Positions 2,923 to 59,102 of a DNA stretch of 64,000 nucleotides are shown here, piece after piece. This DNA is from Candidatus Omnitrophota bacterium. GTDB taxonomy: Bacteria > Omnitrophota > Gorgyraeia > Tantalellales > Tantalellaceae. The notes under the pieces were generated by a model that was not told the origin of the DNA, did not search any database, and worked only from the letters and a program-made list of their open reading frames with translations. The stretch lies in contig JADGBR010000006.1 of NCBI GenBank assembly GCA_015231405.1, forward strand, positions 40,218 to 104,217, read 5' to 3'. The position numbers and the translations under genes are program-made. Position 1 is the first letter of the stretch. The number at the start of each line of letters is the position of its first letter.

Positions 2923-3098
2923 GTATTGTCTCCTTGTTAATTGACGTGTCAGTTTTATCCGTAATGCCTGATATCGTAAGACGTGGGACGTTGGACGTAT
3001 GACGTACGTTTTAATGAGAACTTTAATTTCATGCGCATCTTTCTACGTCCAACGTCCCACAACCTACGTCCCACGGAACTTATCTATCACTTTCACCC

Positions 3099-4499
3099 TC
3101 ACTTCCCAATACAAAACCCGGCAAATATCCGATCCAGAACTTCCTCCCCGACAGTCTCCCCAGTGATCAAGCCAAGATCATTCACCGCTTCGTTGATATC
3201 GCTCGCAAGAAGTTCGGCGTTGAACTCTACTGAAACCGACCTGACGGCGTTTTCGATATTTTCGAGAGCGCTTTCAAGCGCTCTCTTGTGGCGAATATTG
3301 GAAAGCATAGCGCCGCAAGTTACAGATGTCTCGCCCATCTTAAGGACCTTGTCCGATACAGCTGCCCTTATTTTTTCGATATTAACGCCTTTAACTATCG
3401 AAGTCTCTATCACAGGATCCCCGCCTAAGGTCCCGGCGATTTCGTCCGCTGATACCTTTTTTTCAAGGTCTACTTTATTCAGTATAACTATCCTTTCCTT
3501 ATCCCCGATCAACTGGTATATCTCCTTGTCAGCCGGGGATAATGACATCGACGCGTCCAGCATGAATATCACGAGATCAGCCCTCGCGATGACCAGAAGG
3601 GCTCTTCTGATGCTTTCCGTCTCTATGCGGCAATCCGTTTCCCTGATGCCGGCTGTATCGGTGAGTTTAACCTTGATCCCGTTTATATCAACCGACTCCT
3701 CGACGACATCCCTAGTGGTACCCGAAACCGGGGTCACTATAACCCTGTCCTTTTTGAGCAGCGCGTTCATGAGACTTGATTTCCCGACATTAGGCCTCCC
3801 TGCGATAACAACGGTCAAACCTCTCGTCAGTATCTCTCCCTGCCTGAAAGTTCCCAGAAGCGAGGCGGCATTAGCCTTAAGCGATCTAAGGCGCCCCGCG
3901 ATATTTCCCGCGCCCTCAAATTCAACATCCTCGCCCGTAAAATCTATTCCCAGCTCAACCAGCGACAAAATATCGAGGGCTTCATCCCTTAACCGTTTTA
4001 TCTCACCGGAAAATACGCCTCGAAGGTCCCTCATCGCCAGCCGCTGCGCCTCATCGGATTCCGCTCTGATCACATCAAGCACCGCTTCCGCCTGAACGAG
4101 ATCCATGCGGCCGCTGAGAAAAGCCCTTTTGGTGAACTCGCCGTGACCGGCTAGCCGCGCGCCTTGGGCCAGACAAAGCTCGAGAACCCTTTTAACGGTT
4201 ACCGGACCGCCGTGGCAATTGATCTCGGCGATATCTTCCGTGGTATACGTCGCCGGAGCTCTCATCACCGCGAGCAAAACCTCGTCCACGGTCTCTCTTT
4301 CTCCCGGCCTTACTATATGACCGAAATGAACGGTATGGCTGGGTACAGCCTTTATATCAAGTCCTCTTTTGGGCCTGAAGATCCGCGCGGCTATCTCTAT
4401 CGCCTCCGGTCCGCTCATCCTGACGATACCTATCCCGCCCTCGCCGGGGGGCGTCGATATCGCCGCTATTGTATCATTTTTCACTTTTCCCATTCTCAC
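3099..4499 (-). CDS. mnmE: tRNA modification GTPase MnmE (TrmE)
   Basis: 466 aa. It has the N-terminal DTIAAISTPPGEGGIGIVRMSG motif, a G-domain (GRPNVGKSSLMNAL) and the C-terminal CIGK motif. The most likely start is the ATG at 4493, with GTG at 4499 as an alternative. Confidence 0.95.
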   Translation of the reverse strand: MRMGKVKNDTIAAISTPPGEGGIGIVRMSGPEAIEIAARIFRPKRGLDIKAVPSHTVHFGHIVRPGERETVDEVLLAVMRAPATYTTEDIAEINCHGGPVTVKRVLELCLAQGARLAGHGEFTKRAFLSGRMDLVQAEAVLDVIRAESDEAQRLAMRDLRGVFSGEIKRLRDEALDILSLVELGIDFTGEDVEFEGAGNIAGRLRSLKANAASLLGTFRQGEILTRGLTVVIAGRPNVGKSSLMNALLKKDRVIVTPVSGTTRDVVEESVDINGIKVKLTDTAGIRETDCRIETESIRRALLVIARADLVIFMLDASMSLSPADKEIYQLIGDKERIVILNKVDLEKKVSADEIAGTLGGDPVIETSIVKGVNIEKIRAAVSDKVLKMGETSVTCGAMLSNIRHKRALESALENIENAVRSVSVEFNAELLASDINEAVNDLGLITGETVGEEVLDRIFAGFCIGK

Positions 4500-4502
4500 G
4501 TC

Positions 4503-5867
4503 CTACGTCCCACTTCCTACGTCCCACGATCGCATCCCAGCCGTCACCCCCGTGCGCCCCAAAACACGATCACGCACCTCACCAACAAGATAGAACGACC
4601 CCGTAACAACAACAAGATCCCGTTTGGAAGTTTTCGCGAACACGACACCGAGCGCCTCGTCGACATTCGCGGTGACGGTTATGTTATTACCGCGAAAAAA
4701 ACCTCTCACGACAAGAGGATCCGCCGCGCGCGCCACGTTTGACCTTGTTATTACGAACTCATCAGCTGTCCCGGATAATTCCTCTACAACACCTTTAATA
4801 TCCTTATCCGCGGAGATCCCCAGAATGAAGAACAGCCTGTCATATTTAAAGGCCCTCCTTATCGCCGATACCAGTCTTCGCGCGCTCGCTTTATTCTGCG
4901 CCCCGTCGAGGACCATCATTGGATCACGTGATATTATCTCGAGCCTCCCGGGGATAAAGGCTTCTCTTACCCCTTTTCTTACGGCTTCCTTATCCGCTTT
5001 GAAACCTTTCCTCAAGGCTATTTTCTCGAACATCCCTATAGCCGTCGCCGCGTTCTCCGCCTGAAAATCACCGGACATGGCCGAATAACAGTTCTCGTAA
5101 ACCCCGGAAGTCCCTTCTATGTCGAAGTAAGTCCCGTCGATACCGGTCCTGACCCTGCCGAACTTTATATCCCTTCCGACGGCCGAGAGAGGCGCGTTCT
5201 TTTCGGCGCACCTGGCCTCGAGAACGCCCATTACTCCGGGCTCCTGAGGCGCCGTCACACAATCCATCCCTTCTTTTATCACTCCGGCTTTTTCGCCGGC
5301 TATCTCCTCCAAAGTATTACCGAGAATATGCGTATGGTCATAGCTTATCGGGCTGAAACCCGCTACATGCGGTTCTATGACATTCGTAGCGTCCAGCCGT
5401 CCTCCGAGCCCGCATTCGAAAACCGCGTATTCGACCTTCATCGCCCTGAAATGCATCATGGAAATTATCGTGAACATCTCGAAAAAAGAAAAAGTGCGGC
5501 TTTCCATGAGATCGCCGATAATATCGCCGGCGGCATTGATCGTTTCAACCACGGAGCTTTCGGATATCATTACGTTATCGACGCATATCCTTTCCCTCAT
5601 ATCAGAAAGATGGGGTGAGGTGAATATGCCGGTCCTCGACCCTGAACTTTTCAATATCGAGGCGAGAAAGACGGATGTCGAACCTTTTCCTTTTGTCCCG
5701 GCGACATGGGCCGTCTCGTAGCTCCTTTCGGGGTTGCCCAGCCTGGCCAGGGCGAGACGGATATTCGAAAGATTATCCCTCCGTTTAAGCTTGACCAGAC
5801 CTCTTGACTCGAAATTGTAGAGAGAGTTAAGATACTTGACCGCGTCCGGATATGTGGTGATATTCAT
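4503..5867 (-). CDS. folC: Folylpolyglutamate synthase / dihydrofolate synthase
   Basis: 454 aa with Mur-ligase-family motifs (HVAGTKGKGST…). Its last ~10 codons are encoded by the CCTACGTCCCAC repeat element. Confidence 0.9.
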   Translation of the reverse strand: MNITTYPDAVKYLNSLYNFESRGLVKLKRRDNLSNIRLALARLGNPERSYETAHVAGTKGKGSTSVFLASILKSSGSRTGIFTSPHLSDMRERICVDNVMISESSVVETINAAGDIIGDLMESRTFSFFEMFTIISMMHFRAMKVEYAVFECGLGGRLDATNVIEPHVAGFSPISYDHTHILGNTLEEIAGEKAGVIKEGMDCVTAPQEPGVMGVLEARCAEKNAPLSAVGRDIKFGRVRTGIDGTYFDIEGTSGVYENCYSAMSGDFQAENAATAIGMFEKIALRKGFKADKEAVRKGVREAFIPGRLEIISRDPMMVLDGAQNKASARRLVSAIRRAFKYDRLFFILGISADKDIKGVVEELSGTADEFVITRSNVARAADPLVVRGFFRGNNITVTANVDEALGVVFAKTSKRDLVVVTGSFYLVGEVRDRVLGRTGVTAGMRSWDVGSGT

Positions 5868-5875
5868 ATGGCAAA

Positions 5876-7450
5876 TTAATGCTTAAAATGCCTGATACCG
5901 GTAAAAACCATGGAGATACCGCACCTGTCGCAGGCCGCGATAACATCGGCGTCCTTTACGGAACCACCGGGCTGAATAACCGCCCTGACCCCGGCCTTAT
6001 GAGCTTCGTCTATGGAATCAGGCATAGGGAAAAAAGCGTCGCTCGCGAGCACAGATCCTTTTGACCGTTCCCCGGCTTTCCTGATCGCCGTTATTACGGA
6101 ATCGACCCGTGACATCTGTCCGGCTCCTATGCCGACCGTCGCCGTACCTCTTGAAAGAACGATCGCGTTGCTTTTAACATGCCTGACAATATTCCAGGCG
6201 AAAATGAGAGCCTCCATGTCTTCTTTTGAAGGCACCGCCTTTGTGACAATTTTCATGTTCTCCGCGGAAATCGAGCCCTCATCCATATCCTGCACGAGGA
6301 ATCCTCCGGGCACCTTTTTAATATCTTTTTCCCCGGCTGTCCCGAGTTCGCCCGCCGGAAGTCCCAGAACACGCAAATTCTTCTTTTTCCCGAAAACCTC
6401 TAAAGCTTTCCCGATATATCCGGGGGATATTATGCATTCCACGAAATCGGCCTCGCCAAGAATAAGCTCGGCTAACTTCTCGTCGATCTCGCGGTTAAAA
6501 GCCATTATCCCTCCGAAAGCGCTCATCCTGTCGCAATCGAGAGCCTTGAGATATGCGTCCTCCATTTTATCCGCCATGGCCGCGCCCGAGGGGTTGTTAT
6601 GTTTTACGACCACCGCTCCCGGCTTATCAAGATCGTTAACGATCCTTAGGGCGGAGCCTAGGTCCAGGATATTATTAAAAGAAAGCTGTTTCCCCTGATA
6701 CTGTTTCGCCGCCGCGAAACCTTCCGATCGGGAATCTATATCCTTATAAAGGGCCCCTTTCTGGTGTGGGTTTTCACCGTATCTCAGGTCATACAATTTT
6801 TCCAGTCTGATATTGATAGCAGGAAGCAGTTCATCCGCGCCCTCCCCACCCGGCAAGGACGGAAACGTCCGAGAGAAATAACGGTTTATGGCCCCGTCAT
6901 ATTCCGATGTCCTCCGGAAAGCCTCCGACGCCAGCTTTTTAAGCGTTCCCTCGGATATTTCTCCGCCCGCGGCGTTCAGTTGGCGTATAACTTCAGGATA
7001 CTGCCCGGGGGAAGAAACTACCGCTACCGACTTAAAATTTTTTGAGGCGCTGCGGAGCATGCTCGGTCCGCCTATATCAATGTTCTCGAGCGCTTCCTCG
7101 AAAGTCACTCCCGGACGCGAAACTGTCATCTCGAAAGGATAAAGATTTACGACCACCATATCGATGTAAGGGATGCCCATCGCCTCCATCACTTTCCGGT
7201 GCTCGGAGTTATCCCTCTGAGACAGGAGACCGGCGTGGATAACAGGATTCAGGGTCTTTACGCGGCCATCCAGCATTTCCGGATAACCCGTATGGTCAGC
7301 TATGTCTACCACCGGTATGTTAAGGGATTTTAGAAGCTTTGCGGTGCCGCCTGTCGATATTATCTGGACTCCCAGAGCGTGGAGCAGAAAAGCCAGCGGC
7401 TCGAGCCCGGTTTTATCGTAAACGCTTATAAGCGCCCTTTTTACTTTCAC
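5876..7450 (-). CDS. purH: Bifunctional AICAR transformylase / IMP cyclohydrolase
   Basis: 524 aa. N-terminal MGS-like domain (RALISVYDKTGL…GGTAKLL) followed by an AICARFT domain. Confidence 0.95.
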   Translation of the reverse strand: MKVKRALISVYDKTGLEPLAFLLHALGVQIISTGGTAKLLKSLNIPVVDIADHTGYPEMLDGRVKTLNPVIHAGLLSQRDNSEHRKVMEAMGIPYIDMVVVNLYPFEMTVSRPGVTFEEALENIDIGGPSMLRSASKNFKSVAVVSSPGQYPEVIRQLNAAGGEISEGTLKKLASEAFRRTSEYDGAINRYFSRTFPSLPGGEGADELLPAINIRLEKLYDLRYGENPHQKGALYKDIDSRSEGFAAAKQYQGKQLSFNNILDLGSALRIVNDLDKPGAVVVKHNNPSGAAMADKMEDAYLKALDCDRMSAFGGIMAFNREIDEKLAELILGEADFVECIISPGYIGKALEVFGKKKNLRVLGLPAGELGTAGEKDIKKVPGGFLVQDMDEGSISAENMKIVTKAVPSKEDMEALIFAWNIVRHVKSNAIVLSRGTATVGIGAGQMSRVDSVITAIRKAGERSKGSVLASDAFFPMPDSIDEAHKAGVRAVIQPGGSVKDADVIAACDRCGISMVFTGIRHFKH

Positions 7451-7452
7451 TT

Positions 7453-8031
7453 CTACCTCGCCTTAAGTACTTTTATCTTCAGCCTGAGCATCCCGATCTC
7501 CTCGCCCAGCTTGGTTAATTCCTGTCCGAGAGTAGCTTCCCTCTCGAGAAGGATGGAATGTTTCTTGTTCCAGACCTGTATTTCCTCTTTCGTGAAATCA
7601 AGCCTGTTCTTTTTTTGCATTAGGTTATCGACTTCGCTGATATCCCTTTTCACGTCATTCATCTCGTTCGTCTTTATCTTGAACCTCGCGGAGATATCTA
7701 TCAATTTATTCCGGAGCTCCTGCTGGTCCGGAACGAGCTGCTGCTTTTTTGCCTCTAACGCCTGAAGATATTCGACCCTAAGGTCCTCCCTCTTTTTCTT
7801 GAGAGACTCGATCTGTATGTAGATAGCGTTAGCGGCCTTACGGTACAGGGCCCCTATATCGGATATCTCGTTCTGTATAAGGTCCCTTTTCTCGAGCAGT
7901 TTCGCGAACAGGGGGTCATAATCTACTATTTTCTTCTCAGCCTCTTCCCGCCTTTCCACACAGCCGCATAGCGCCACCGTCGAACAAAAATAGATAAGAA
8001 ACAGTAAATGCTTTATGCGACAGATCGACAT
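7453..8031 (-). CDS. Hypothetical secreted or lipoprotein coiled-coil protein
   Basis: The ORF is 7453..8070. The likely start is the internal M (MSICRIKHLLFLIYFCSTVALCGC…), which gives a signal peptide, followed by a heptad-rich KE coiled coil. Its stop lies 2 bp from the purH start, so the two are probably co-transcribed. Confidence 0.45.
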   Translation of the reverse strand: MSICRIKHLLFLIYFCSTVALCGCVERREEAEKKIVDYDPLFAKLLEKRDLIQNEISDIGALYRKAANAIYIQIESLKKKREDLRVEYLQALEAKKQQLVPDQQELRNKLIDISARFKIKTNEMNDVKRDISEVDNLMQKKNRLDFTKEEIQVWNKKHSILLEREATLGQELTKLGEEIGMLRLKIKVLKAR

Positions 8032-8050
8032 ATAACTTGTCCTTACGTTT

Positions 8051-8107
8051 GACCATGGACCATGGACCATGGACCATAGACCATGGACTATAGACTATGG
8101 ACTATGG
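8051..8107. repeat. Tandem heptamer array (GGACCAT/AGACCAT/GGACTAT, about 8 units)
   Basis: Read directly: ggaccatggaccatggaccatagaccatggactatagactatggactatgg. Confidence 0.8.
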
Positions 8108-8111
8108 GCCT

Positions 8112-8309
8112 TCACTTTCTGGCGGCCTCTTTCTTTCGGTCTTTGCGTTCGGCTGTCCCGGAAGCTAGAGCTATGATGCCGGCGAATATAAGAAAACCCG
8201 GCAGTATTCCCCTTACGATGAACAAAACTTCGTATCCCCACAGGAAAAAAAGTATGACTCCTAAGATCGTCAATACCCCTCCGCCCGCCAAACTGTAATA
8301 CTGGCCCAT
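8112..8309 (-). CDS. Small membrane protein (two predicted TM helices), hypothetical
   Basis: 65 aa. Two hydrophobic stretches and a basic C-terminal tail (KDRKKEAARK). Confidence 0.35.
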   Translation of the reverse strand: MGQYYSLAGGGVLTILGVILFFLWGYEVLFIVRGILPGFLIFAGIIALASGTAERKDRKKEAARK

Positions 8310-8420
8310 CTCATCCCTCCGTCTTTCTCGCGCCGGGTCAACGTAACTCCTGACGTTTTTACATTATACAATTAAAACGCGTATTGCCAAGACAAAAAAC
8401 GTTTTCCCCACGGGAGTTAT

Positions 8421-8491
8421 GTCATCCCCGCGAAAGCGGGGACCACATAAAAATAATATTTCCATTAGATCCCCGCTTTCGCGGGGATGAC
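8421..8491. repeat. Twin GC-rich hairpins forming a 23-bp inverted repeat (gtcatccccgcgaaagcggggac … atccccgctttcgcggggatgac)
   Basis: Read directly. The stems are tccccgc/gcgggga with loops gaaa and tttc, separated by a 25-bp AT-rich spacer, about 90 bp upstream of era. Confidence 0.7.
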
Positions 8492-8583
8492 AACTTCTAT
8501 TTCTATTTTCCCTTCCCCTCTTTGTCCCGTTTGCCCCAATTATCCGTCTAGCTATCATACTTCACGCATGCTATAATATCGCC

Positions 8584-9477
8584 ATGACAAAATGCGGATA
8601 CATAGCTATAGCCGGGCAGCCCAATGTCGGGAAATCCACACTGATCAACGGCCTCATGAAGAAAAAAGTCGCTATTATCAGCGAAAAGCCGGAGACCACC
8701 AGGGACGCGATATGCGGGATACTCACCGAAGGCGACAGCCAGATGATATTCATCGATACGCCCGGGATACACAAACCTAAGAATCTCCTCGGAAAGATCA
8801 TGACCACCCAGGCGAGATCGTCCGTCCTCGAAGCCGATATCATCCTCTTCCTCATCGAAAAAAGAGCGGCTTTCACCCGGGAGGATATGAACATCATCTC
8901 TCTATTACCCGAGAAAAAGGACAAGAAAACGGTCATTCTGATAATAAACAAAACGGACAGGATAAAAGATAAACCGTCCCTTCTCCCTCTCATGGAAAAA
9001 GCGGCCCGGCTGTACCCCTTTGACGAGATAGTGCCGATGAGCGCCCTTGACCAGAAGCACATTGACGCGCTGCATTCGCTCATAACCAAATACTTACCTG
9101 AAAAAGATCATATTTTCGCCTCTGACAAGATCACGGACAGGGACGAGGATTTCATGACAAAAGAAATAATACGGGAAAAAATACTCATTGAATCCTACGA
9201 TGAAGTACCGCATTCGGTAGCTGTGACGATTGACCAGAAGAACGACGAGGGTACTATCATCCGCATCCACGCCACGATAATAGTTGAAAGGGAATCCCAA
9301 AAAACCATAATCATCGGGAAGAACGGCTCGATGATAAAGAAGATCGGCACTTCCGCGCGCCGCGAACTGGAAAAACTTCTTAATAAGCGGGTCTATCTGG
9401 ATCTCTGGGTCAAACCGGTGAAAGACTGGAAGAAAGATACGGAAGCGCTCAGGGACGTCGGGTATATAAGCGGCTGA
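8584..9477 (+). CDS. era: GTPase Era
   Basis: 297 aa. G1 motif AGQPNVGKSTL, DTPG, NKTD, and a C-terminal KH domain (…IIIGKNGSMIKKIG…). Confidence 0.95.
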   Translation: MTKCGYIAIAGQPNVGKSTLINGLMKKKVAIISEKPETTRDAICGILTEGDSQMIFIDTPGIHKPKNLLGKIMTTQARSSVLEADIILFLIEKRAAFTREDMNIISLLPEKKDKKTVILIINKTDRIKDKPSLLPLMEKAARLYPFDEIVPMSALDQKHIDALHSLITKYLPEKDHIFASDKITDRDEDFMTKEIIREKILIESYDEVPHSVAVTIDQKNDEGTIIRIHATIIVERESQKTIIIGKNGSMIKKIGTSARRELEKLLNKRVYLDLWVKPVKDWKKDTEALRDVGYISG

Positions 9478-9482
9478 GCATT

Positions 9483-9519
9483 ATGGACCATGGACCATAG
9501 ACTATAGACCATGGACCTT
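9483..9519. repeat. Second tandem heptamer array of the same family (about 5 units), immediately 3' of era
   Basis: Read directly: atggaccatggaccatagactatagaccatggacc. Confidence 0.8.
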
Positions 9520-10176: not shown

Positions 10177-10220
10177 AGTTCACACTCAGACTGTTTATGC
10201 GTCAAGAATATCAGCTTAAT

Positions 10221-10328
10221 CCGTCATTGCGAGGAAAGAGCGACGAAGGAGCGAACGACGAAGCAATCCCTGTAATTTATTATTTTTACAGAGATTGCTT
10301 CGGGCACTTCGCGCCCTCGCAATGACGG
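10221..10328. other. About 108-bp imperfect hairpin between the helicase stop and the HAD hydrolase start
   Basis: Outer stem ccgtcattgcgagg / cctcgcaatgacgg; inner stem cgaagcaatc / gattgcttcg; AT-rich loop. Confidence 0.6.
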
Positions 10329-10369
10329 ACAAAACGGTCCCCCATGCTCCCTGCCCCATGCCCTTTGCC

Positions 10370-13186: not shown

Positions 13187-13263
13187 CTGCTCCGGTTACG
13201 AGATATCCATTTTATTACGTCCTACGTCCCCCATCCTACGTCCTACGGCAATATGTAAGCCCG

Positions 13264-22326: not shown

Positions 22327-25300
22327 TTATTTGACCGGTTTGTTTTTCCGGGCGCGGAATGAAACGACGGCGCTTTTAACCTTGGCCAGAGAAACCCGCC
22401 ATTTCTCCTGGATCTCGCCTTCGATAACGTATATAGCCGGTATGACGAAAAGGGTCAGCGACGTCGAAACGGCCATTCCACCGGCAACCGAGATAGCCAT
22501 GGGTCTCTGAAGTTCCGCACCTCGCCCGGAAGCCAGGATCATCGGGAAAAGCCCAAGAACTGTACTGAATGCCGTCATCATTATAGGACGGAGCCGTGTC
22601 AGCCCGGCCTCTATTATCGCGTCGTGTCGGCTCAGCCCCTTTTCTTTTACCAGCAGGTTGGTGAAATCGATGAGTACTATACCGTTATTGACGACTATAC
22701 CCCCGAGAATTACGACCCCGAGAAGAGAGATAACGTTCACCGAGGTCTTCGTAAAGTACAGCGCGAGGATAACGCCTATTATCGAAAGTGGAACGGTAAA
22801 AAGTATAATGAAGGGTTGCGTTATCGATTCAAACTGCGCCGCCATTACCATGTATACAAGAAGTATGGACAGGGTTATCGCGAAAACAAGGCTGGCAAAT
22901 GATTTTTTCATTTCCTCCGACTCACCTCCCATCCTCACCCTATAGTTCTTTTCCACTTCCACATTCTTAAGCGCCGCCTCTATCTCCGTGTTAACATCGG
23001 ATATTTTCCGCTGCGAGACATTTGCCGAGACCGTTATGGTCTTTTCCTGGCTGATACGCCGTATTTCGCTCGGGCCCATGCCCTGCTCGAACTTAACGAC
23101 CTTGCTTAAGGGAACAGGTCCGGCGACGGGGCTATTCACGATCAGCCGCTGGATCTTCGAGTACTGGTCCCTGTCCTTTTTCTTAAGAACAACTCTGATA
23201 TCGATTTCCTTACCTTTCTCCTTGAACTGCGACGGTATATAACCTCTGATAACCGTTTGTGCCATTCTAGCCAGATCCACGACGGAGAGGTTGTACAAAG
23301 CCGCTTTATCCTTATCGATAATTATCCTGACCTCTGGGATGGGGTCAGGGAAATCGTCCTCGATTCCAAATATTCCTTTTATCCCTTCCAGTTTCTCCCT
23401 GACCCTTTTAGCTATTTTCCCTATCACTTCGAGGTCCTCGCCTTTTATTTCCACGGCTATCGGCTTTGCGCTGCCTCCAAAAGCTCCCGACATGATACCC
23501 TGTTGTATGAGCACTTCTATTGTGGCTCCCCTAAAAGCCTTTCCCTTGAGAACGGGAACAAGAATGTCCACTATCTCCGACGTAGTCCGTTTTTTGTTGT
23601 CTTTCAGAGCGACCATGATCTGCGCCTGGTTGGAACCTATGCTCTTGATTATGTCCTTGGTGGACTCCCCTTTTTCGGCACCCACAATGGTGTTGATGGT
23701 AGCCGCTTCGGGAACGATCCGCGATATCGTATCCTCTACTCTTTCCACTGTCCGGTTGGTCTCTTCGACTATCGTCCCCACCGGAAGGTCGACTTTCACC
23801 ATGAACTCACCCTGGTCCGCTTTTGGCATAAGTTCTTTATCCAGAGATCCCCACAACATAAGGCTCCCAAGAAAAAGGGCGAGCATCCCTAGAAGGCCTA
23901 ACCCCTTAACCTTCATAAAAGCGCGTAGTGCACCCTCGTAGAGTTTCACTAATTTCATCCAACCCTTTCCACCGGTGAAAAGGTCAGCTGATTTCACACC
24001 GCCTTTCCCCAGTCCCATTTTGAGGCTCATAAGCGGTATGGTCATGATGGCCACTACCAGCGAGATTATCTGGCAAAATGTTATCGTGAACGATATCTGT
24101 TTAAAAAGCTGGCCCGCTATACCTATGACAAACACCATGGGAAGGAATACCGATACGGATGTCAGGGTGGAAGCGATGACGGCGTTAACGACCTCGTCCG
24201 TTCCTTTTTCGGCGGCCACGCTCATCTCAGAACCCATCTCTTTGTGCCTGAAAATATTCTCGATTATAACTACGGCATTATCGAGCATCATCCCTACCCC
24301 GAGGGCTAATCCGCCCATGCTCATTATGTTGATCGATATCCCCGGGAAATACATGAAAATGAACACTATGACGACTGTTATAGGGATATTCACAGTGACG
24401 ATGAACGCGGTCTTCATATTCTTGAGAAATATATAAAGAGTTATGAAGGCGAGCACCGCGCCCTGCCACGCTGCATCGGTAACCGACCGGATAGCGTCCT
24501 TAATGAACACAGACTGGTCCAGAGTAACGTTTATCTGTATGTCTTTCGGAACTTTGTCCTTCATCGCCACTATGGCTTTGCGGACCTTCTCAACGACTTG
24601 TATGGTATTTGCCTGCGACTGTTTCTGTATAGAAATGGAGATATTCTCCTTGCGGTTATACCGGGAGAAACTGCTCTTTTCCTTGAAGGTATCTTTTACT
24701 TCAGCGACGTCTTTCAGCAGCACCACATTAACGACCTTGCTGATTTCAAGTTTTTTCAGGGATATGCCGTAATTCTCCTGCTGACCCTCTCCCTGTTCGT
24801 CCGCATTGCTCGCGATCACGACGTCCTTCAATTCGTCCATCTTCTCGAACTCGCCGAGCGTCCTTATCATGTACTCATAAAAGCTCTCCTTTATAGTACC
24901 CGCCGGATAATTAAGGTTCGAGTTAGTTATCGCGTCTGATATGGTGAGTATTGGAACATTGTAGTTAGAAAGTTTCCCCTGGTCGATATCGACCAGTATC
25001 TCACGTTCCAACCCGCCTTCTACAGAGGCCGAAGCGACGCCTTCGACCTTCTCAAGCTCGTCTTTTATCCTATCCTTGGCTATTCTGCGAAGGTCCAGAA
25101 GGTCCCTGTTCCCGGTAACGCTGAGGCGCATGATAGGCATATCGAAGGGGTTGAACATGACGACAAGGGGCTCCGTGGCGTCCCTGGGGAGACCCGCCTT
25201 AACGAGATCGACCTTTTCACGGACACGCAGCGAAGCGAAGTCCATGTTCTGATCCCAGTCAAACTCGGCGAAAACCAGCGAAACGCCCTCTTTAGAGATC

Positions 25301-25545
25301 GAACGTATGGCCCTGATGCCGCTGGCCGTTCCTACAGCCTCTTCGATGGGTTTCGTGAGAAGGGTCTCCACTTCCTGGGGAGCGGCATTCGCATACCCGG
25401 TAAAAATGGTCAACTGTGGGTATTTGATCTCGGGGAAAAGCTCCATCGGCATCTTAAGCAGCGAAATAATGCCGAAAAGACCCAGCCCGAGATAGATCAT
25501 CACGGTGGTAACAGGCCGGTTTATCGAGAACGACGCTAAAGTCAT
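22327..25545 (-). CDS. RND-family efflux transporter (second pump, in tandem)
   Basis: The ORF runs to 25611; the likely start is MTLASFSINRPV at 25545. Its stop is 2 bp from the start of the downstream RND gene. Confidence 0.9.
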   Translation of the reverse strand: MTLASFSINRPVTTVMIYLGLGLFGIISLLKMPMELFPEIKYPQLTIFTGYANAAPQEVETLLTKPIEEAVGTASGIRAIRSISKEGVSLVFAEFDWDQNMDFASLRVREKVDLVKAGLPRDATEPLVVMFNPFDMPIMRLSVTGNRDLLDLRRIAKDRIKDELEKVEGVASASVEGGLEREILVDIDQGKLSNYNVPILTISDAITNSNLNYPAGTIKESFYEYMIRTLGEFEKMDELKDVVIASNADEQGEGQQENYGISLKKLEISKVVNVVLLKDVAEVKDTFKEKSSFSRYNRKENISISIQKQSQANTIQVVEKVRKAIVAMKDKVPKDIQINVTLDQSVFIKDAIRSVTDAAWQGAVLAFITLYIFLKNMKTAFIVTVNIPITVVIVFIFMYFPGISINIMSMGGLALGVGMMLDNAVVIIENIFRHKEMGSEMSVAAEKGTDEVVNAVIASTLTSVSVFLPMVFVIGIAGQLFKQISFTITFCQIISLVVAIMTIPLMSLKMGLGKGGVKSADLFTGGKGWMKLVKLYEGALRAFMKVKGLGLLGMLALFLGSLMLWGSLDKELMPKADQGEFMVKVDLPVGTIVEETNRTVERVEDTISRIVPEAATINTIVGAEKGESTKDIIKSIGSNQAQIMVALKDNKKRTTSEIVDILVPVLKGKAFRGATIEVLIQQGIMSGAFGGSAKPIAVEIKGEDLEVIGKIAKRVREKLEGIKGIFGIEDDFPDPIPEVRIIIDKDKAALYNLSVVDLARMAQTVIRGYIPSQFKEKGKEIDIRVVLKKKDRDQYSKIQRLIVNSPVAGPVPLSKVVKFEQGMGPSEIRRISQEKTITVSANVSQRKISDVNTEIEAALKNVEVEKNYRVRMGGESEEMKKSFASLVFAITLSILLVYMVMAAQFESITQPFIILFTVPLSIIGVILALYFTKTSVNVISLLGVVILGGIVVNNGIVLIDFTNLLVKEKGLSRHDAIIEAGLTRLRPIMMTAFSTVLGLFPMILASGRGAELQRPMAISVAGGMAVSTSLTLFVIPAIYVIEGEIQEKWRVSLAKVKSAVVSFRARKNKPVK

Positions 25546-25744
25546 GTTATCCTTTAGAATCCAGAATTCAGAATCCAGAATCCAGAATTCGTCATACCAG
25601 AACGGAAGCATATCATCAATTGCTTCATGGTATCTCTTCCAAATATCACATTAACGATCCATATTTTAAGCATTAAATACCTTTCACGCTCCGTCTTCCG
25701 TGATTCTGGCTTTGGGATCTTATCTTCATTATCCCTAACCAACA

Positions 25745-31472: not shown

Positions 31473-31611
31473 ATGATAGCAATCCGTAAACTTGAAACCC
31501 AGTTCCTAATAAATACCTTAACTTCTAACTTTTTCTGATAACATAACTATACATAACGAATTAGTAAAAGTCAATAGTTAGATTTAATTTATTCAATTAG
31601 GAATTTAGAAG

Positions 31612-31760
31612 CCAGAATTCAGAAGACAGAAGACAGAAGACAGAACCCAGAATAGTAGTGTCGAGATATGATCCCCGAGAAGAGTGCATTACCCCCCCCC
31701 CTCAACCGTTTATTCTGTATTCTATATTCTGTATTCTGGATTCTGAATTCTGAATTCCTG
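31612..31760. repeat. Long imperfect palindrome built of CAGAAT/CAGAAG hexamer repeats around a C10 homopolymer (31692-31701)
   Basis: Left arm ccagaattcagaagacagaagacagaagacagaacccagaatag. Right arm tattctgtattctatattctgtattctggattctgaattctgaattcc. Confidence 0.7.
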
Positions 31761-31816
31761 TTTCTTACTTCTTGACATCCCCCAAACACTATGTTATTTT
31801 ATTGCCTTAATACCGT

Positions 31817-32045: not shown

Positions 32046-32204
32046 CCGCCTTCGCCAAACTATTTTATGTTAATTGGCTTCGGCGGACAGGCCGTAGGGC
32101 GATCATATTTTCCGGCGTGAGCGATAGCGAGAGCCGGTAACATTATATGAGCCCGACTTGCCCGCCGTAGCCAGATACAATACAAATATTTTGGCGAAGG
32201 CGGG
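32046..32204. repeat. MITE/REP-like nested palindromic element (terminal inverted repeats ccgccttcgccaaactatttt / aaatattttggcgaaggcggg)
   Basis: Read directly. There is also an inner inverted pair ggcttcggcgg / ccgccgtagcc. Related copies lie at 52474-52519 and 59081-59102. Confidence 0.6.
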
Positions 32205-32248
32205 AGGCGCCGAATCCACTCTTCACGAAGCCTCGCGGTCAATAACGT

Positions 32249-42282: not shown

Positions 42283-45200
42283 TTATTGCGTCCTAACGTT
42301 CCTCGTCCCATCGGTCTGGAGCGCGTACTGGAATTCCAGCGTATCAGGCGGACCGAGAGTCCGGTTGGTCACCGTCATCTTCCCGTATTTTGCATCTGCG
42401 GTCTTAAAAGCGTAAACTTTTCCCACATCCATATTGTCAACAAAAGGGGCGTATCCAGATGACGGGGCTTCATTGAGCGCCCCGAACGTGGAAGTTGTAA
42501 TTTCCTGTATCTCGGACGCGCCTACGGCGATAAATCGCATCCCCATAACATAATTGAAATCACCGGTATCCACGTCAGCCTGAGCCCCGGACGAGAAACT
42601 AAATCCCTTTACATTGCTAGGAGGGGGACCGGGTTCGGATGTGACAGACCCTGTCCGGACGGATATCACGGCGGTCGAAGTCGTCCCTCCGGCCTCAACG
42701 GTCTCGCTGGATCCGGGCTGTACGGGATCACGGGTTTCCTGAGCCTGCTCTATCTGCTCGACGACGGCTTGCGCCAACCCGCTGGATTCGGCTATTTCCG
42801 GGGAAAGAGTAGCGTATATTAGGTTCCCTTTAAGATTGTAGATCTTCATCCTTCCGTCCTCCAGAACAAAGATCATCTCAGTTTTTCCTGTCGTCCTTTG
42901 CTGTTCCCCGGTCTGTCTCGGTATCTGGGTCTTGTTCCACGTTGTCTCGGCAACGTATTGCCCGTTACGTATCTCTATCCTGTTGATGAATATGGTGAGC
43001 CTTATTTCAGTGAACATATCGAAGTCGAACCTCACTCCTTCTTCCAGAAAAGTCCGGTTGCCTATGAAATCCCTCGATATATTCTCTTCGAATAAAGAAA
43101 CGTTCTGGGCTTCATAGGCGTCGGCTATCTTCTTAGCGGCGTCGACGAGAAGCTGGCTATAGTCGATGTTCCTATATATCAACCCGTTGATGTTCTCGAA
43201 CGGCTCTAGAGTGACCTCATCGAAATCCACGGTCTTGATCTTGAAAACGACCTGATACAATTGCTCGACCGCCGGCATGAAGGAAAAGGATAACATCTGG
43301 TTCTTCTGGCATTCGTTCCATATCCGTCCGCCGTCGGTCGAAACGAGTATCTTATCTATCCTGTCCAGCGTGTTCAGCCTGGCTGTAACTTCGATAGCGT
43401 TATTCTTCAGGTCAGTATTCGTGAGGATAACGTCACCGGAAGCGTTTTTTAGGCTCACTGTATTTACGCGCGCGTCATAAAGCTGATAAAAAGAAAACCC
43501 TTCACCCTCCCCCACTGGAACGGTTTGAGAGAAAGACGCCGTTTTCTGTCCGGGCTGGCCTCCCTGTCCAGGCTGTCCCCCTTGCCCCGGCTGCCCGCCC
43601 TGCCCTGGCTGCCCACCCTGCCCTGGTTGTCCTCCCTGTCCTGGTTGTCCTCCCTGTCCTGGTTGTCCACCCTGTCCCGGTTGTCCACCCTGTCCCGGCT
43701 GGCCTCCCTGTCCAGGCTGGCCACCCTGCCCCGGTTGTCCGCCGGGCCCGCTTGTCTTAGTGGTTTTAAGAAACTCCGTGCGCTCTTCCAGGATCTTATC
43801 GAGTTCATTCATTATGGAGACATATCTTTTGCCCAGCGAATGATCGAAAGGAGCCGGGTTTTTCTCATAGGCTTTGTCCACGGCATATGGCTGGCTCGTA
43901 TCACCGCTTGAAATTATGGCACCGGCTATTGCCCCAATGACCGGCATCATCTGCTGCATGAACTCGATATCACTCGCGTCATATTTGACCTTCGGAACTT
44001 CCTCCTCGAACTTCGCGACCGTGCTAGCCTGGATCACGATCTCCGTATCGCCCGAAGGAGCGAAAAAATTGTCTTCCGCGGCGTATTCAACTCCGGGCAA
44101 GGTAAGGATCTTCTCGAGTACCTCGTTAACTCCGGAGGCGCTATTCTTAATGAACTTGTAGCCCGGATATTGCTGCCACATAGTTCTTATCTCGTTGGCG
44201 AAAGTCCCCGTATCGTTCTTAGTCATATAGTGTTTGTAGGGTTTATCCATCAGTATCAAATTGCCGTCTTTCTTGAAAAGGATCTCGTACTCCCCATAGC
44301 TGAACTCCCTAAGAACTCCTTTTTCCTTCTGGTCCCGGAAGAACTCCTCTACCGCCGCTTTTTTAGAGTTGATCCAGTCCGCCCCTTCCTGACGTTTCGC
44401 CATTTCCTCGTCGGCATATTTACGTATCTCGTCGAACCTGGCCTGTGACCTGTTGATGAGATCCTGAAGTTTCTCTATGGCATTGCCCAGGTCCGCCATC
44501 TCTTCCATTTGCCGGTCGAAATTTTCGGAAACACCGAGCACCTTCATTTCGGTGAGTTCACTGTCCGACGGTTTAGGTATATCCTTAAGTTCCGCCGCGG
44601 CTCTCTGCCAATCCGGGTAGGAACCCTGGACATTCGCCATTCGGTACCCACCTTCCCTGCCTATCTCCCCGGCGAAATCGAAGTTTACAGTAGCGGCCTT
44701 CTGGTTCATTTCAGAATATAGCTCGGGAACGCTTTTCGGGTCGTTAAAAGTACCTACTCCCCCATACTCGTAAGATTTCGTTTTTTCTACCGCCGCGTTA
44801 ATGGCGTTCATGTTATCCGAAAAATCTTCATCGGCCTGGGTCCTCGTCCCTGTCCCCAGGATACTATTGACGGGAATTATTTTGGCTGACGCCTGCACAA
44901 GCCCTGTATATTCATACCATTGCCTTTGCCTTACCCTCTTAAGGTCGTTAAAAGTATTGACGAGCCCTGATATCTCGGAATTGGTCTTAACGATCACGGC
45001 TTCGGTCGTATTCCTGAGCGTCTGGCTAACGTCCCCGGCCAGATAATATGCGCTCTGAAGAATGGATAACTCGCCGCCGAGGGCGCTAGTCTCCTTTCTT
45101 ATCGCTTCCATCCGCGTTGAGTTGCCGCTCATTGCCGAGACAAGGCTGCTCCTTAAGGCTTCGTCATAGGAATCGTAATACTGTCTCTGCAATTTCGCGT

Positions 45201-52473: not shown

Positions 52474-52560
52474 GTCCGCCTTCGCCAAACTATTTTGATA
52501 TTATTCGGCTACGGCGGACAAAATTCGCCTTTTCTGGATTGTTATTGGTAGGCGAATTTT
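52474..52560. repeat. Two adjacent hairpins 3' of tRNA-Leu: a CCGCCTTCGCCAAACTATTTT-family hairpin (gtccgccttcgcc…ggctacggcggac) and aaaattcgcc…ggcgaatttt
   Basis: Read directly. They probably serve as the tRNA terminator. The first is a copy of the 32046 element's arm. Confidence 0.6.
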
Positions 52561-52645: not shown

Positions 52646-52650
52646 ATAAC

Positions 52651-52718
52651 AGCTATCAGCTTTCAGCTTTAACGGATGTCTAACCACCTATAGCAGAAGG
52701 CTGATGGCTGAAAGCTAG
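52651..52718. repeat. AGCTTTCAGC-family palindrome between rpsI and tRNA-Leu
   Basis: The pair agctatcagctttcagcttt … ggctgatggctgaaagctag. Confidence 0.6.
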
Positions 52719-54847: not shown

Positions 54848-54851
54848 GTTT

Positions 54852-54943
54852 GCTTTCAGCTATAAGCTTTCAGCTTTATTTGTAGGGCTAGTGATCTTTA
54901 CATTAAAAAGCTGAAAGCTGAAGACTGACAGCTGAAAGCTAAA
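54852..54943. repeat. AGCTTTCAGC-family long palindrome between asd and truA
   Basis: The pair gctttcagctataagctttcagcttt … aaagctgaaagctgaagactgacagctgaaagc. Confidence 0.65.
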
Positions 54944-58894: not shown

Positions 58895-59080
58895 TTACCG
58901 CTCCTTATTTGAAATATCAAAAGCACATTGTGAGAAAGAAGTTTACCAAATTTGGGAAGTAAAATCAATGGGTTATTTCAGGCGGGAACGAGGATCAACA
59001 ACATCCCGCCTGCCCTCCGACGAAGTCCTCCGAAGCAAAATAATATAAAATGGGTATGCGTAGGAGGAAGCCAAATAATA

Positions 59081-59102
59081 TAAAATAGTTTGGCGAAGGA
59101 GG
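59081..59102. repeat. Solo copy (inverted orientation) of the CCGCCTTCGCCAAACTATTTT-family motif, preceded by a direct repeat aaataatataaaat(g/a)g
   Basis: Read directly: aaaatagtttggcgaaggaggg. Confidence 0.5.

Follow-up and report, generated by a model that had tools for sequence, protein, structure and literature searches.

Dispersed heptanucleotide repeat cassettes at operon junctions of a Candidatus Omnitrophica genome

The GTGGGACGTAGG repeats located in three gene junctions of this Candidatus Omnitrophica genome are one of at least four heptanucleotide families in the analysed DNA, a stretch of 64 kb which is referred to as the window. They constitute one inverted and three direct copies of a cassette. 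Most syntenic relatives have tight or overlapping junctions at these places, into which the arrays were apparently inserted in a lineage-specific manner. The cassettes appear to have been copied as blocks, with inverted duplication yielding long hairpins, and seem to be tolerated in gaps and, elsewhere, in protein loops. The explanation we favour, with moderate confidence, is that the cassettes are dispersed heptameric simple-sequence repeats that originated by slippage, were copied as blocks and persist as tolerated insertions with incidental effects, and that they are not operators of a common regulator.

Family A cassettes in three gene junctions

In the 64-kb window, CCTACGTCC occurs five times (0.51 expected), and all five occurrences are inside the mnmE/folE, folC/mnmE and glgP gaps. 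The maximum in 100 dinucleotide-preserving shuffles was two occurrences, so that none of the shuffles reached five. When one mismatch was permitted, CTACGTCCCAC was found eight times compared to 0.58 expected matches, again exclusively in the same three gaps. These gaps had been pointed out in an earlier sequence-only reading of the DNA, which expected a motif that is not randomly spread; this is borne out by the counts, and all of the repeat sequences it listed were found at the positions it had given.

A family A site is a cassette of approximately 35 nt with about 4.5 tandem units (C/T)ACGTCC on the plus strand. As the minus strand is transcribed, the unit reads GGACGT(A/G) in the mRNA sense. 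All genes flanking the three sites are encoded on the minus strand, and the three direct copies have the same orientation relative to transcription. Tandem Repeats Finder assigned a period of 7 to the arrays at 2975-3006, 3045-3075, 4497-4528 and 13216-13247. For the mnmE/folC gap, two copies of a repeat with a 14-bp period had been proposed. The two copies (cctacgtcccac) are present at 4502-4513 and 4516-4527; the period of 14 nt, and with it the spacing of about 1.3 helical turns, is an artefact that appears because 7-nt unit variants alternate.

The internal order of units is common to all three direct cassettes: two good units, a degenerate one, another good unit and a partial unit, with a T-rich stretch in front (Table 1). 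Over 36 nt, the three cassettes are 83-100% identical. Since they share the unit order, they are best read as copies of one block and not as three separate expansions. No target-site duplication or conserved flank was found, and nhmmer models of families A-D revealed no further diverged copies in the window. Promoter-like hexamers or terminator-like sites were not detected at any array, with scan counts near those of shuffled sequences.

Within family A, dyad symmetry is restricted to the mnmE/folE junction, while copies 2 and 3 are direct tandem heptamers. At this first site, the segments 2983-2999 (gtgggacgttggacgta) and 3044-3060 are reverse complements without any mismatch, in agreement with the perfect 17-bp inverted repeat described before, and the reported direct copy ctacgtcccac follows at 3064-3074. 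Allowing for mismatches, the complementarity covers 25-nt arms (88%) that are 44 nt apart. The distal arm of the composite hairpin is copy 1 of the cassette, and both arms carry the rare variant AACGTCC, which suggests that the cassette was duplicated in inverted form or that the arms were homogenised. The RNA fold was calculated to have -46.7 kcal/mol (z -5.6), a stability that 0 of 200 shuffled sequences attained. Given the loop of 44 nt and the missing U-tract, the structure is not an intrinsic terminator, yet the predicted fold probably affects folding or stability of the mRNA. Comparison with Rfam 15 yielded only sub-threshold matches for this site, all to eukaryotic miRNA-precursor hairpins (17-30 bits, thresholds 60-107), and no match for the third site even with permissive thresholds. 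At the gathering threshold, two tRNAs were the only Rfam 15 matches across the window.

At the folC/mnmE junction, the minus strand of the cassette encodes the last eight residues of FolC (SWDVGSGT), followed by a TAG stop codon (4505-4503) inside a unit. The repeats had been described as intergenic, which holds in that they are confined to gaps; at this junction they nevertheless overlap the 3' end of folC. The array-encoded C-terminal extension is missing in relatives, whose FolC ends about 11-15 residues earlier. An AGGA motif (4504-4501) has a spacing of 7 nt to the ATG of mnmE at 4493, which is the start of the annotated 464-aa database protein. The cassette supplies the stop codon of folC as well as the AGGA, which has Shine-Dalgarno distance to mnmE, and keeps the genes coupled, probably as an incidental effect. 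The junction is an example of an inserted repeat that has come to supply a stop codon and a ribosome-binding-like sequence.

The third site had been placed upstream of glgP, but since the genes are on the minus strand, it is located downstream of this gene. Three units had been counted there. Two of them are exact copies of CCTACGTCC (13221, 13235), whereas the third is limited to TACGTCC at 13216. The recurrence of folate-related genes around the sites (folE, mnmE, folC, purH) is a property of the conserved operon and not of the repeats.

Table 1 Coordinates of repeat arrays, composites and other elements in the window
Feature	Position	Strand	Units and context
Composite hairpin, family A	2965..3085	-	between mnmE stop (3099) and folE start (2922); arms of heptamer units
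Family A inverted copy	2975..3008	-	proximal arm of mnmE/folE hairpin
Family A copy 1	3040..3075	+	TACGTCC AACGTCC CACAACC TACGTCC CACG; GGACGTA-type on transcribed minus strand
Family A copy 2	4493..4528	+	CACGTCC TACGTCC CACTTCC TACGTCC CACG; entire folC/mnmE junction
Family A copy 3	13212..13247	+	TACGTCC TACGTCC CCCATCC TACGTCC TACG; 16 nt past glgP stop (13264), 29 nt before start (13186) of 167-aa membrane-protein gene
Family B array	8051..8107	+	8 units GACCATG/GACTATA; between MamI-like ORF and 190-aa gene (probable true start ~8031)
Family B array	9483..9517	+	5 units ATGGACC/ATAGACT; 66-nt gap between convergent genes era and HAD
Family C array	25553..25588	+	AGAATCC/AGAATTC; ends 9 nt upstream of probable AcrB start
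Family C composite hairpin	31595..31772	+	between ROK gene and tRNA-Glu; -54.5 kcal/mol, z -6.3
Family D composite	52647..52717	-	CAGCTTT/AGCTGAA arms; rpsI stop to tRNA-Leu; weak fold, z -2
Family D composite hairpin	54849..54941	-	asd stop (54973) to truA start (54847); -36.9 kcal/mol, z -5.1
TCCGCCTTCGCCAAACTATTTTATATTATTTGGCTTCGGCGGACA element	32046-32090	+	
TCCGCCTTCGCCAAACTATTTTATATTATTTGGCTTCGGCGGACA element	32158-32205	-	
TCCGCCTTCGCCAAACTATTTTATATTATTTGGCTTCGGCGGACA element	52476-52521	+	
TCCGCCTTCGCCAAACTATTTTATATTATTTGGCTTCGGCGGACA element	59032-59066	-	
TCCGCCTTCGCCAAACTATTTTATATTATTTGGCTTCGGCGGACA element	59067-59102	-	
Near-perfect palindrome	8420-8492		divergent region between MamI-like ORF and era
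Giant ORF, 1162 aa	32249-35737	-	no Pfam match
Giant ORF, 1388 aa	35800-39966	-	no Pfam match
Giant ORF, 1508 aa	42283-46809	-	no Pfam match
MutS-like ORF, 1455 aa	59114-63481	-	MutS domain V (residues 1017-1182)

Other heptanucleotide families in the window

Three more heptamer families were found in six further gaps of the window, namely ATGGACC (family B), CAGAATC/CAGAAGA (family C) and AGCTGAA (family D). Within the window, family A occupies three gaps and has the additional inverted copy, while families B, C and D occupy two gaps each. All 13 arrays are located in gaps or at ORF ends. With a stringent detector, seven period-7 arrays were obtained for the window compared to a mean of 0.07 in 30 dinucleotide shuffles, and each of the other periods from 4 to 12 gave zero or one array. 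The excess of period 7 was also observed in other Omnitrophota loci.

The family B array at 9483-9517 is 94% identical to 8055-8088. Composites of inverted pairs are present in four of the nine array gaps; three of the four fold far better than shuffled sequence, and their four loops are unrelated to each other. The family C hairpin consists of an arm with CAGAAGA/CAGAATT units (31601-31652), a 56-nt loop in which a C10 run is found, and a second, inverted arm of TATTCTG type (31711-31772). The C10 run itself (approximately 31696-31705, upstream of tRNA-Glu) could be a slippage-prone tract or a weak point of the assembly. Both family D composites come very close to the following gene: the one at 52647-52717 is 4 nt away from the 5' end of tRNA-Leu, and the proximal arm of the one at 54849-54941 ends 4 nt before the ATG of truA.

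Along the window, the units follow the gap order A A B B A C C D D (permutation test, P = 0.027 for adjacency and P = 0.002 for distance). In view of the small sample, this clustering of one unit in neighbouring gaps is suggestive only. In gaps upstream of genes, the nearest array ends 3-52 nt from the start codon (3-29 nt without the folE hairpin), in four cases at a distance of 10 nt or less. For start-proximal arrays of the window and of the array-rich relative L131, the sense strand has more stop-containing frames than its antisense counterpart in all eight non-tied cases.

Two mechanically called ORFs on the minus strand (7453-8070 and 22327-25611) have starts that fall inside arrays and are probably wrong. 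Based on alignment with relatives and a Pfam match, the true starts are probably at about 8031 and 25546. For genome annotation, this means that arrays produce wrong start calls, as in these two ORFs, and C-terminal extensions, as in FolC.

The window harbours additional elements that are not heptameric (Table 1). A hairpin element of some 45 nt (TCCGCCTTCGCCAAACTATTTTATATTATTTGGCTTCGGCGGACA) constitutes another dispersed repeat, unrelated to the heptamers, and is present in five copies, two of them in tandem. It has a REP-like look, folds with -22 to -28 kcal/mol (z about -3 to -3.9) and is situated near tRNA genes and gene ends. The near-perfect palindrome next to era has 36-nt arms with 86% complementarity, includes two CCCCGCGAAAGCGGGG hairpins and reaches an RNA fold of -48 kcal/mol (z -10.9). 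Three giant ORFs are paralogous and share a common 300-nt block, and one of them contains a collagen-like Gly-X-Y repeat with an 18-nt period (43546-43740). MutS domain V is the sole Pfam match of the 1455-aa ORF, whose product is a MutS-like ATPase of unusual size in which no mismatch-binding domains are recognisable. A Pfam scan of the window ORFs identified neither a transposase or RAYT nor a reverse transcriptase.

Comparison with syntenic relatives

The closest relatives available for comparison are rather distant. The MnmE of the window has 100% identity to a protein of a Candidatus Omnitrophica MAG; the next best protein is 55% identical, and a genome scan with MnmE gave values of at most 45%. 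A search that started from the array-rich relative P0004 yielded nothing closer than 74%. Seven relatives were found to have the block order glgP–150 aa–uvrD–NUDIX–HAD–era (reverse)–MgtE–MamI-like–190 aa–purH–folC–mnmE–folE. From glgP to folE, gene order is conserved in L128-L131, L135 and L136, and L134 shares part of it. The window itself lacks the MgtE and NUDIX genes of the block (gaps 8107-8584 and 10177-10369), which are present in all relatives examined; the second of these gaps (193 nt) holds an 11-nt repeat (10229-10254).

In five of the seven relatives (L128, L129, L130, L135 and L136), no arrays are present at folC/mnmE and mnmE/folE although the gene order is unchanged. Their folC and mnmE genes overlap or are at most 31 nt apart, and 8-42 nt separate mnmE from folE. 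One of the five, L128, has a single weak array away from the two junctions, while L129, L130, L135 and L136 have none at all. Absence from orthologous junctions despite unchanged gene organisation had been named by the sequence-only reading as an outcome that would refute its proposal, and it speaks against the repeats being sites of a common regulator.

The situation is different in L131, which features eight arrays in 21 kb. Heptamers are found at the same two junctions, yet with units that are unrelated to those of the window. At folC/mnmE, five ACTTGAT units end 2 nt before the ATG of mnmE, and at mnmE/folE a hairpin with CAGAAGA/CAGAGGT arms reaches -58.4 kcal/mol (z -6.6). A heptamer-armed hairpin at mnmE/folE is thus present in two independent lineages. 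Considering occupied junctions as a whole (five in the window and four in L131 of about 12), the overlap is not significant (hypergeometric P = 0.58 for at least two shared junctions). In L134, no heptamers were found; instead, palindromic GTAGGTCACATTTAAATGTGACCTAC elements fill enlarged junctions (2235-2470, 4020-4222, 5448-5695 and 7075-7585). In the same locus, a PDDEXK_3 gene between inverted CACAGATGATCACAGAT repeats replaces folE after mnmE.

Comparison of MnmE identities results in 69-73% between L131 and the array-free L128 and L129, and puts the window at 55%. Because L131 groups with array-free relatives, independent gain is the simpler history. With nearest relatives as distant as these, the alignments would also accommodate ancestral presence followed by losses. 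Across eight genomes, the conserved block is therefore seen in three states: heptamer arrays abound in two genomes, where their units differ, palindromes occupy the junctions of one, and the other five have no repeats. The presence of arrays differs between related genomes, and a comparison of complete array-rich and array-free sister genomes could hint at the replication or repair factor behind the genesis of 7-nt repeats. Array-rich are the MAG of the window and the bin with ENA ERZ27256770 k141_1771530; the array-free sisters include GCA_043816025.1, GCA_014728045.1, GCA_049642065.1 and GCA_042564445.1.

Occurrence in metagenomes and in coding sequences

The double unit, searched as an exact pattern with 21 specified bases, was found in 76 metagenome contigs with G+C contents of 25-74%, nearly all of which contain plain (C/T)ACGTCC arrays. 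In a first class, which consists of related low-GC contigs, the arrays extend over hundreds of bp. A second class comprises short arrays like those of the window, often as inverted pairs (L058, L088, L112, L121, L123), and these frequently adjoin arrays of other units. The low-GC contigs (25-40%; L053, L056, L061, L064, L073, L101 and duplicates) contain CACGTCT/CACGTCC arrays of 100-400 bp. Their flanks are 80-90% similar to one another, so that they form a separate long-satellite class. Duplicate contigs were 100% identical, and no differences in copy number were observed among them.

Units from different genomes match at up to one mismatch in 2.9% of pairs, compared to an expectation of about 1.9%. 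Being near random, this value led us to reject a universally preferred heptamer, and the breadth of matches reflects how common heptamer arrays are and not a special role of ACGTCC. The 76 matches are compatible with any heptamer turning up in a database this large. A link to phages was likewise rejected, as two viral contigs only carry the pattern, one of which is identical to contig L069.

Arrays of (C/T)ACGTCC also occur in frame and in the stop-free orientation inside protein-coding genes. Examples are Lnt, PheT, an RnfC-like protein, two histidine kinases and radical-SAM enzymes, and QueA and DinB encoded on metagenome contigs carry the peptide WDVGRGTW derived from in-frame arrays. In other Omnitrophota, in-frame heptamer arrays of other units were found inside one loop of MnmE. 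Among Omnitrophota, this loop (between HYG(W/H)IV and IDEV(I/L)L) is a hot spot of insertion, and it has no insert in the MnmE of the window. The inserts are CAGAAAA, CGAGCAT and CGGTAAA arrays as well as longer sequences (L013 10190-10235, L025 10171-10202, L024 approximately 10200-10300; proteins P0089, P0098 and P0104).

Proposed origin and alternative explanations

For the favoured explanation, we infer the following course of events. Units would arise and expand via slipped-strand replication. Blocks would then be copied to nearby sites without a transposase, for example by template switching or gene conversion. Selection would keep harmless insertions only, i.e. those in gaps or those in frame in surface loops of proteins. 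Orientation in gaps would be selected too, in that stop codons on the sense strand terminate the upstream ORF after a short distance, so that the genes stay coupled, although a function could explain the stop-codon bias equally well. Slippage alone does not account for the recurrence of one cassette in neighbouring gaps.

A bolder version, which we hold to be rather unlikely, is that a transposase-free copying process operates in some Omnitrophota and scattered bacteria and places heptamer cassettes of about 35 nt in nearby junctions, at distances of 1.4-9 kb, as well as within loops of essential genes, also in inverted orientation. If true, this would be a new type of ultra-small, locally spreading repeat, and its switching on (window, L131) and off (L128-L130, L135, L136) might be traceable to a specific replication or repair gene. 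In a variant, cassettes may be recruited as hairpins and as modular spacers that combine a stop codon with a Shine-Dalgarno-like sequence, and may re-tune translational coupling in operons.

Apart from tolerated simple-sequence repeats, it is possible, if unlikely, that the arrays are post-transcriptional cis-elements, in which an RNA-binding protein or the hairpins themselves set translation initiation, coupling, processing or stability. Such a role would suit the short distances between arrays and gene starts, the AGGA of the family A unit at Shine-Dalgarno distance from mnmE, the three hairpins of the window that are far more stable than shuffles and the orientation bias in stop-codon content. 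A similar role has been proposed for TAACTGA repeats (PMC4679880). However, four unrelated units in a single 64-kb window would need several factors, and one array is located between convergent genes (9483-9517). Arrays are also missing in most syntenic relatives and occur in frame inside coding regions. Proximity to start codons, on the other hand, is expected for any insert that fills a very short gap.

Mobilisation in trans of a REP/BIME- or MITE-like element, e.g. by a RAYT (Y1 transposase), appears clearly improbable, although a block of about 35 nt in dispersed copies and composites that form hairpins resemble such elements. The family A unit contains GTAG, the tetranucleotide conserved at the ends of REPs, and L134 harbours true palindromic GTAGG...CCTAC elements at the same junctions. 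In-frame insertion is moreover reminiscent of Rickettsia palindromic elements. Against this, tandem heptamers in direct orientation, which are not palindromes, make up most of the copies, and no relationship is seen among the loops of the four composites. GTAG is absent from units B-D, neither duplicated target sites nor conserved flanks were found, and the window ORFs scanned with Pfam include no gene for a transposase, RAYT or reverse transcriptase. The suggestion of a small REP family in the sequence-only reading applies loosely, in the sense of a copied cassette in gaps, but not with regard to fixed palindromes.

An operator function of the family A sites, with a single DNA-binding transcription factor controlling folE, mnmE, folC and the gene after glgP together, is highly improbable. 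The motif is repeated in three gaps, with a dyad at one of them, and heptad direct repeats can bind regulators, as is the case for ToxR and H-NS at the TTTTGAT heptads of the ctx promoter. Yet the sites are operon-internal, one overlaps a coding end, and no promoter-like signal accompanies them. The junctions are repeat-free in five of the seven relatives with the same gene order and carry other units in a sixth. Arrays with other units and the same anatomy are present elsewhere in the window, and (C/T)ACGTCC arrays are found in frame inside unrelated genes elsewhere. With a spacing of 7 bp, moreover, each site faces another side of the helix than the one before it.

Chance similarity or an assembly artefact, for which nothing speaks but the shortness of the motif, is practically negligible given five occurrences at 0.5 expected with no shuffle out of 100 reaching this number, a 36-nt family with 83-100% identity, the same architecture in independent assemblies and in-frame copies that preserve ORFs.

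Comparison with known heptamer repeats and REP elements

It has been known for decades that heptameric repeats are over-represented in some bacteria. Heterocystous cyanobacteria possess several families of STRR (short tandemly repeated repetitive) heptanucleotide sequences per genome, which are tandem, dispersed and non-coding and were reportedly described by Mazel et al. in 1990 (cited in PMC4692102). The window resembles them in having several distinct heptamer families, and differs in the group of organisms, the units and the shortness of the arrays. REP/BIME and Rickettsia palindromic elements are fixed palindromes at operon junctions that form hairpins; the former are tied to the RAYT transposase, and the latter insert in frame into genes. 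Like these elements, the repeats of the window are small, are located at operon junctions and form hairpins, and the same heptamer array occurs in frame elsewhere. In contrast, the elements of the window are tandem heptamers of variable unit, and no transposase was seen among the window ORFs. Family A has no imperfect-palindrome unit of fixed sequence with 20-40 nt, which characterises REP/BIME elements, and also lacks the promoter position and the conserved orthologous sites of an operator set. In our literature search, no paper on heptamer repeats in Omnitrophota was found.

Heptameric simple-sequence repeats of the types GGGAATC and GGGGA(C/T)T were described for Xanthomonas and Nostoc (Rehm et al. 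2015, PMC4692102). They are intergenic, mostly contain about four units, include degenerate and in part inverted units that give rise to stem-loops, and vary widely between related genomes. The arrays of the window share the intergenic position, the number of about four units, the degenerate units, the inversion of some of them and the variability between relatives. GGGAATC-type units are G-rich and form G-quadruplexes (PMC4692102), whereas the GGG runs in family A are 14 nt apart, which is not the typical G4 pattern. The GGGAATC-type repeats count among the long simple-sequence repeats that Mrazek et al. described in 2007. As relayed in PMC4679880 and PMC4692102, Mrazek et al. proposed that polymerase slippage has a preference for 7-nt steps.

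The TAACTGA sets of marine Beggiatoaceae (MacGregor 2015, PMC4679880) consist of 2-6 copies and include 'split' sets with a related 7-mer in the middle. Their position is mostly intergenic, often with the end a few nt ahead of a start codon; overlap with the upstream stop codon is seen for some sets in the stop-bearing orientation, and reverse copies are found inside ORFs (PMC4679880). The arrays of the window share the 7-nt unit, the split sets, the overlap with a stop codon and the proximity to starts. Inverted pairs are rare in the TAACTGA sets and one dominant unit is used genome-wide (PMC4679880), whereas the window, which belongs to the Omnitrophota, contains at least four units in 64 kb, has inverted-pair hairpins in four of nine gaps and shows clustering of one unit in neighbouring gaps.

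Taken together, and as far as can be read from the sequence, family A displays every testable feature that defines dispersed heptanucleotide simple-sequence repeats, which adds the Omnitrophota to the bacteria with heptamer repeats.
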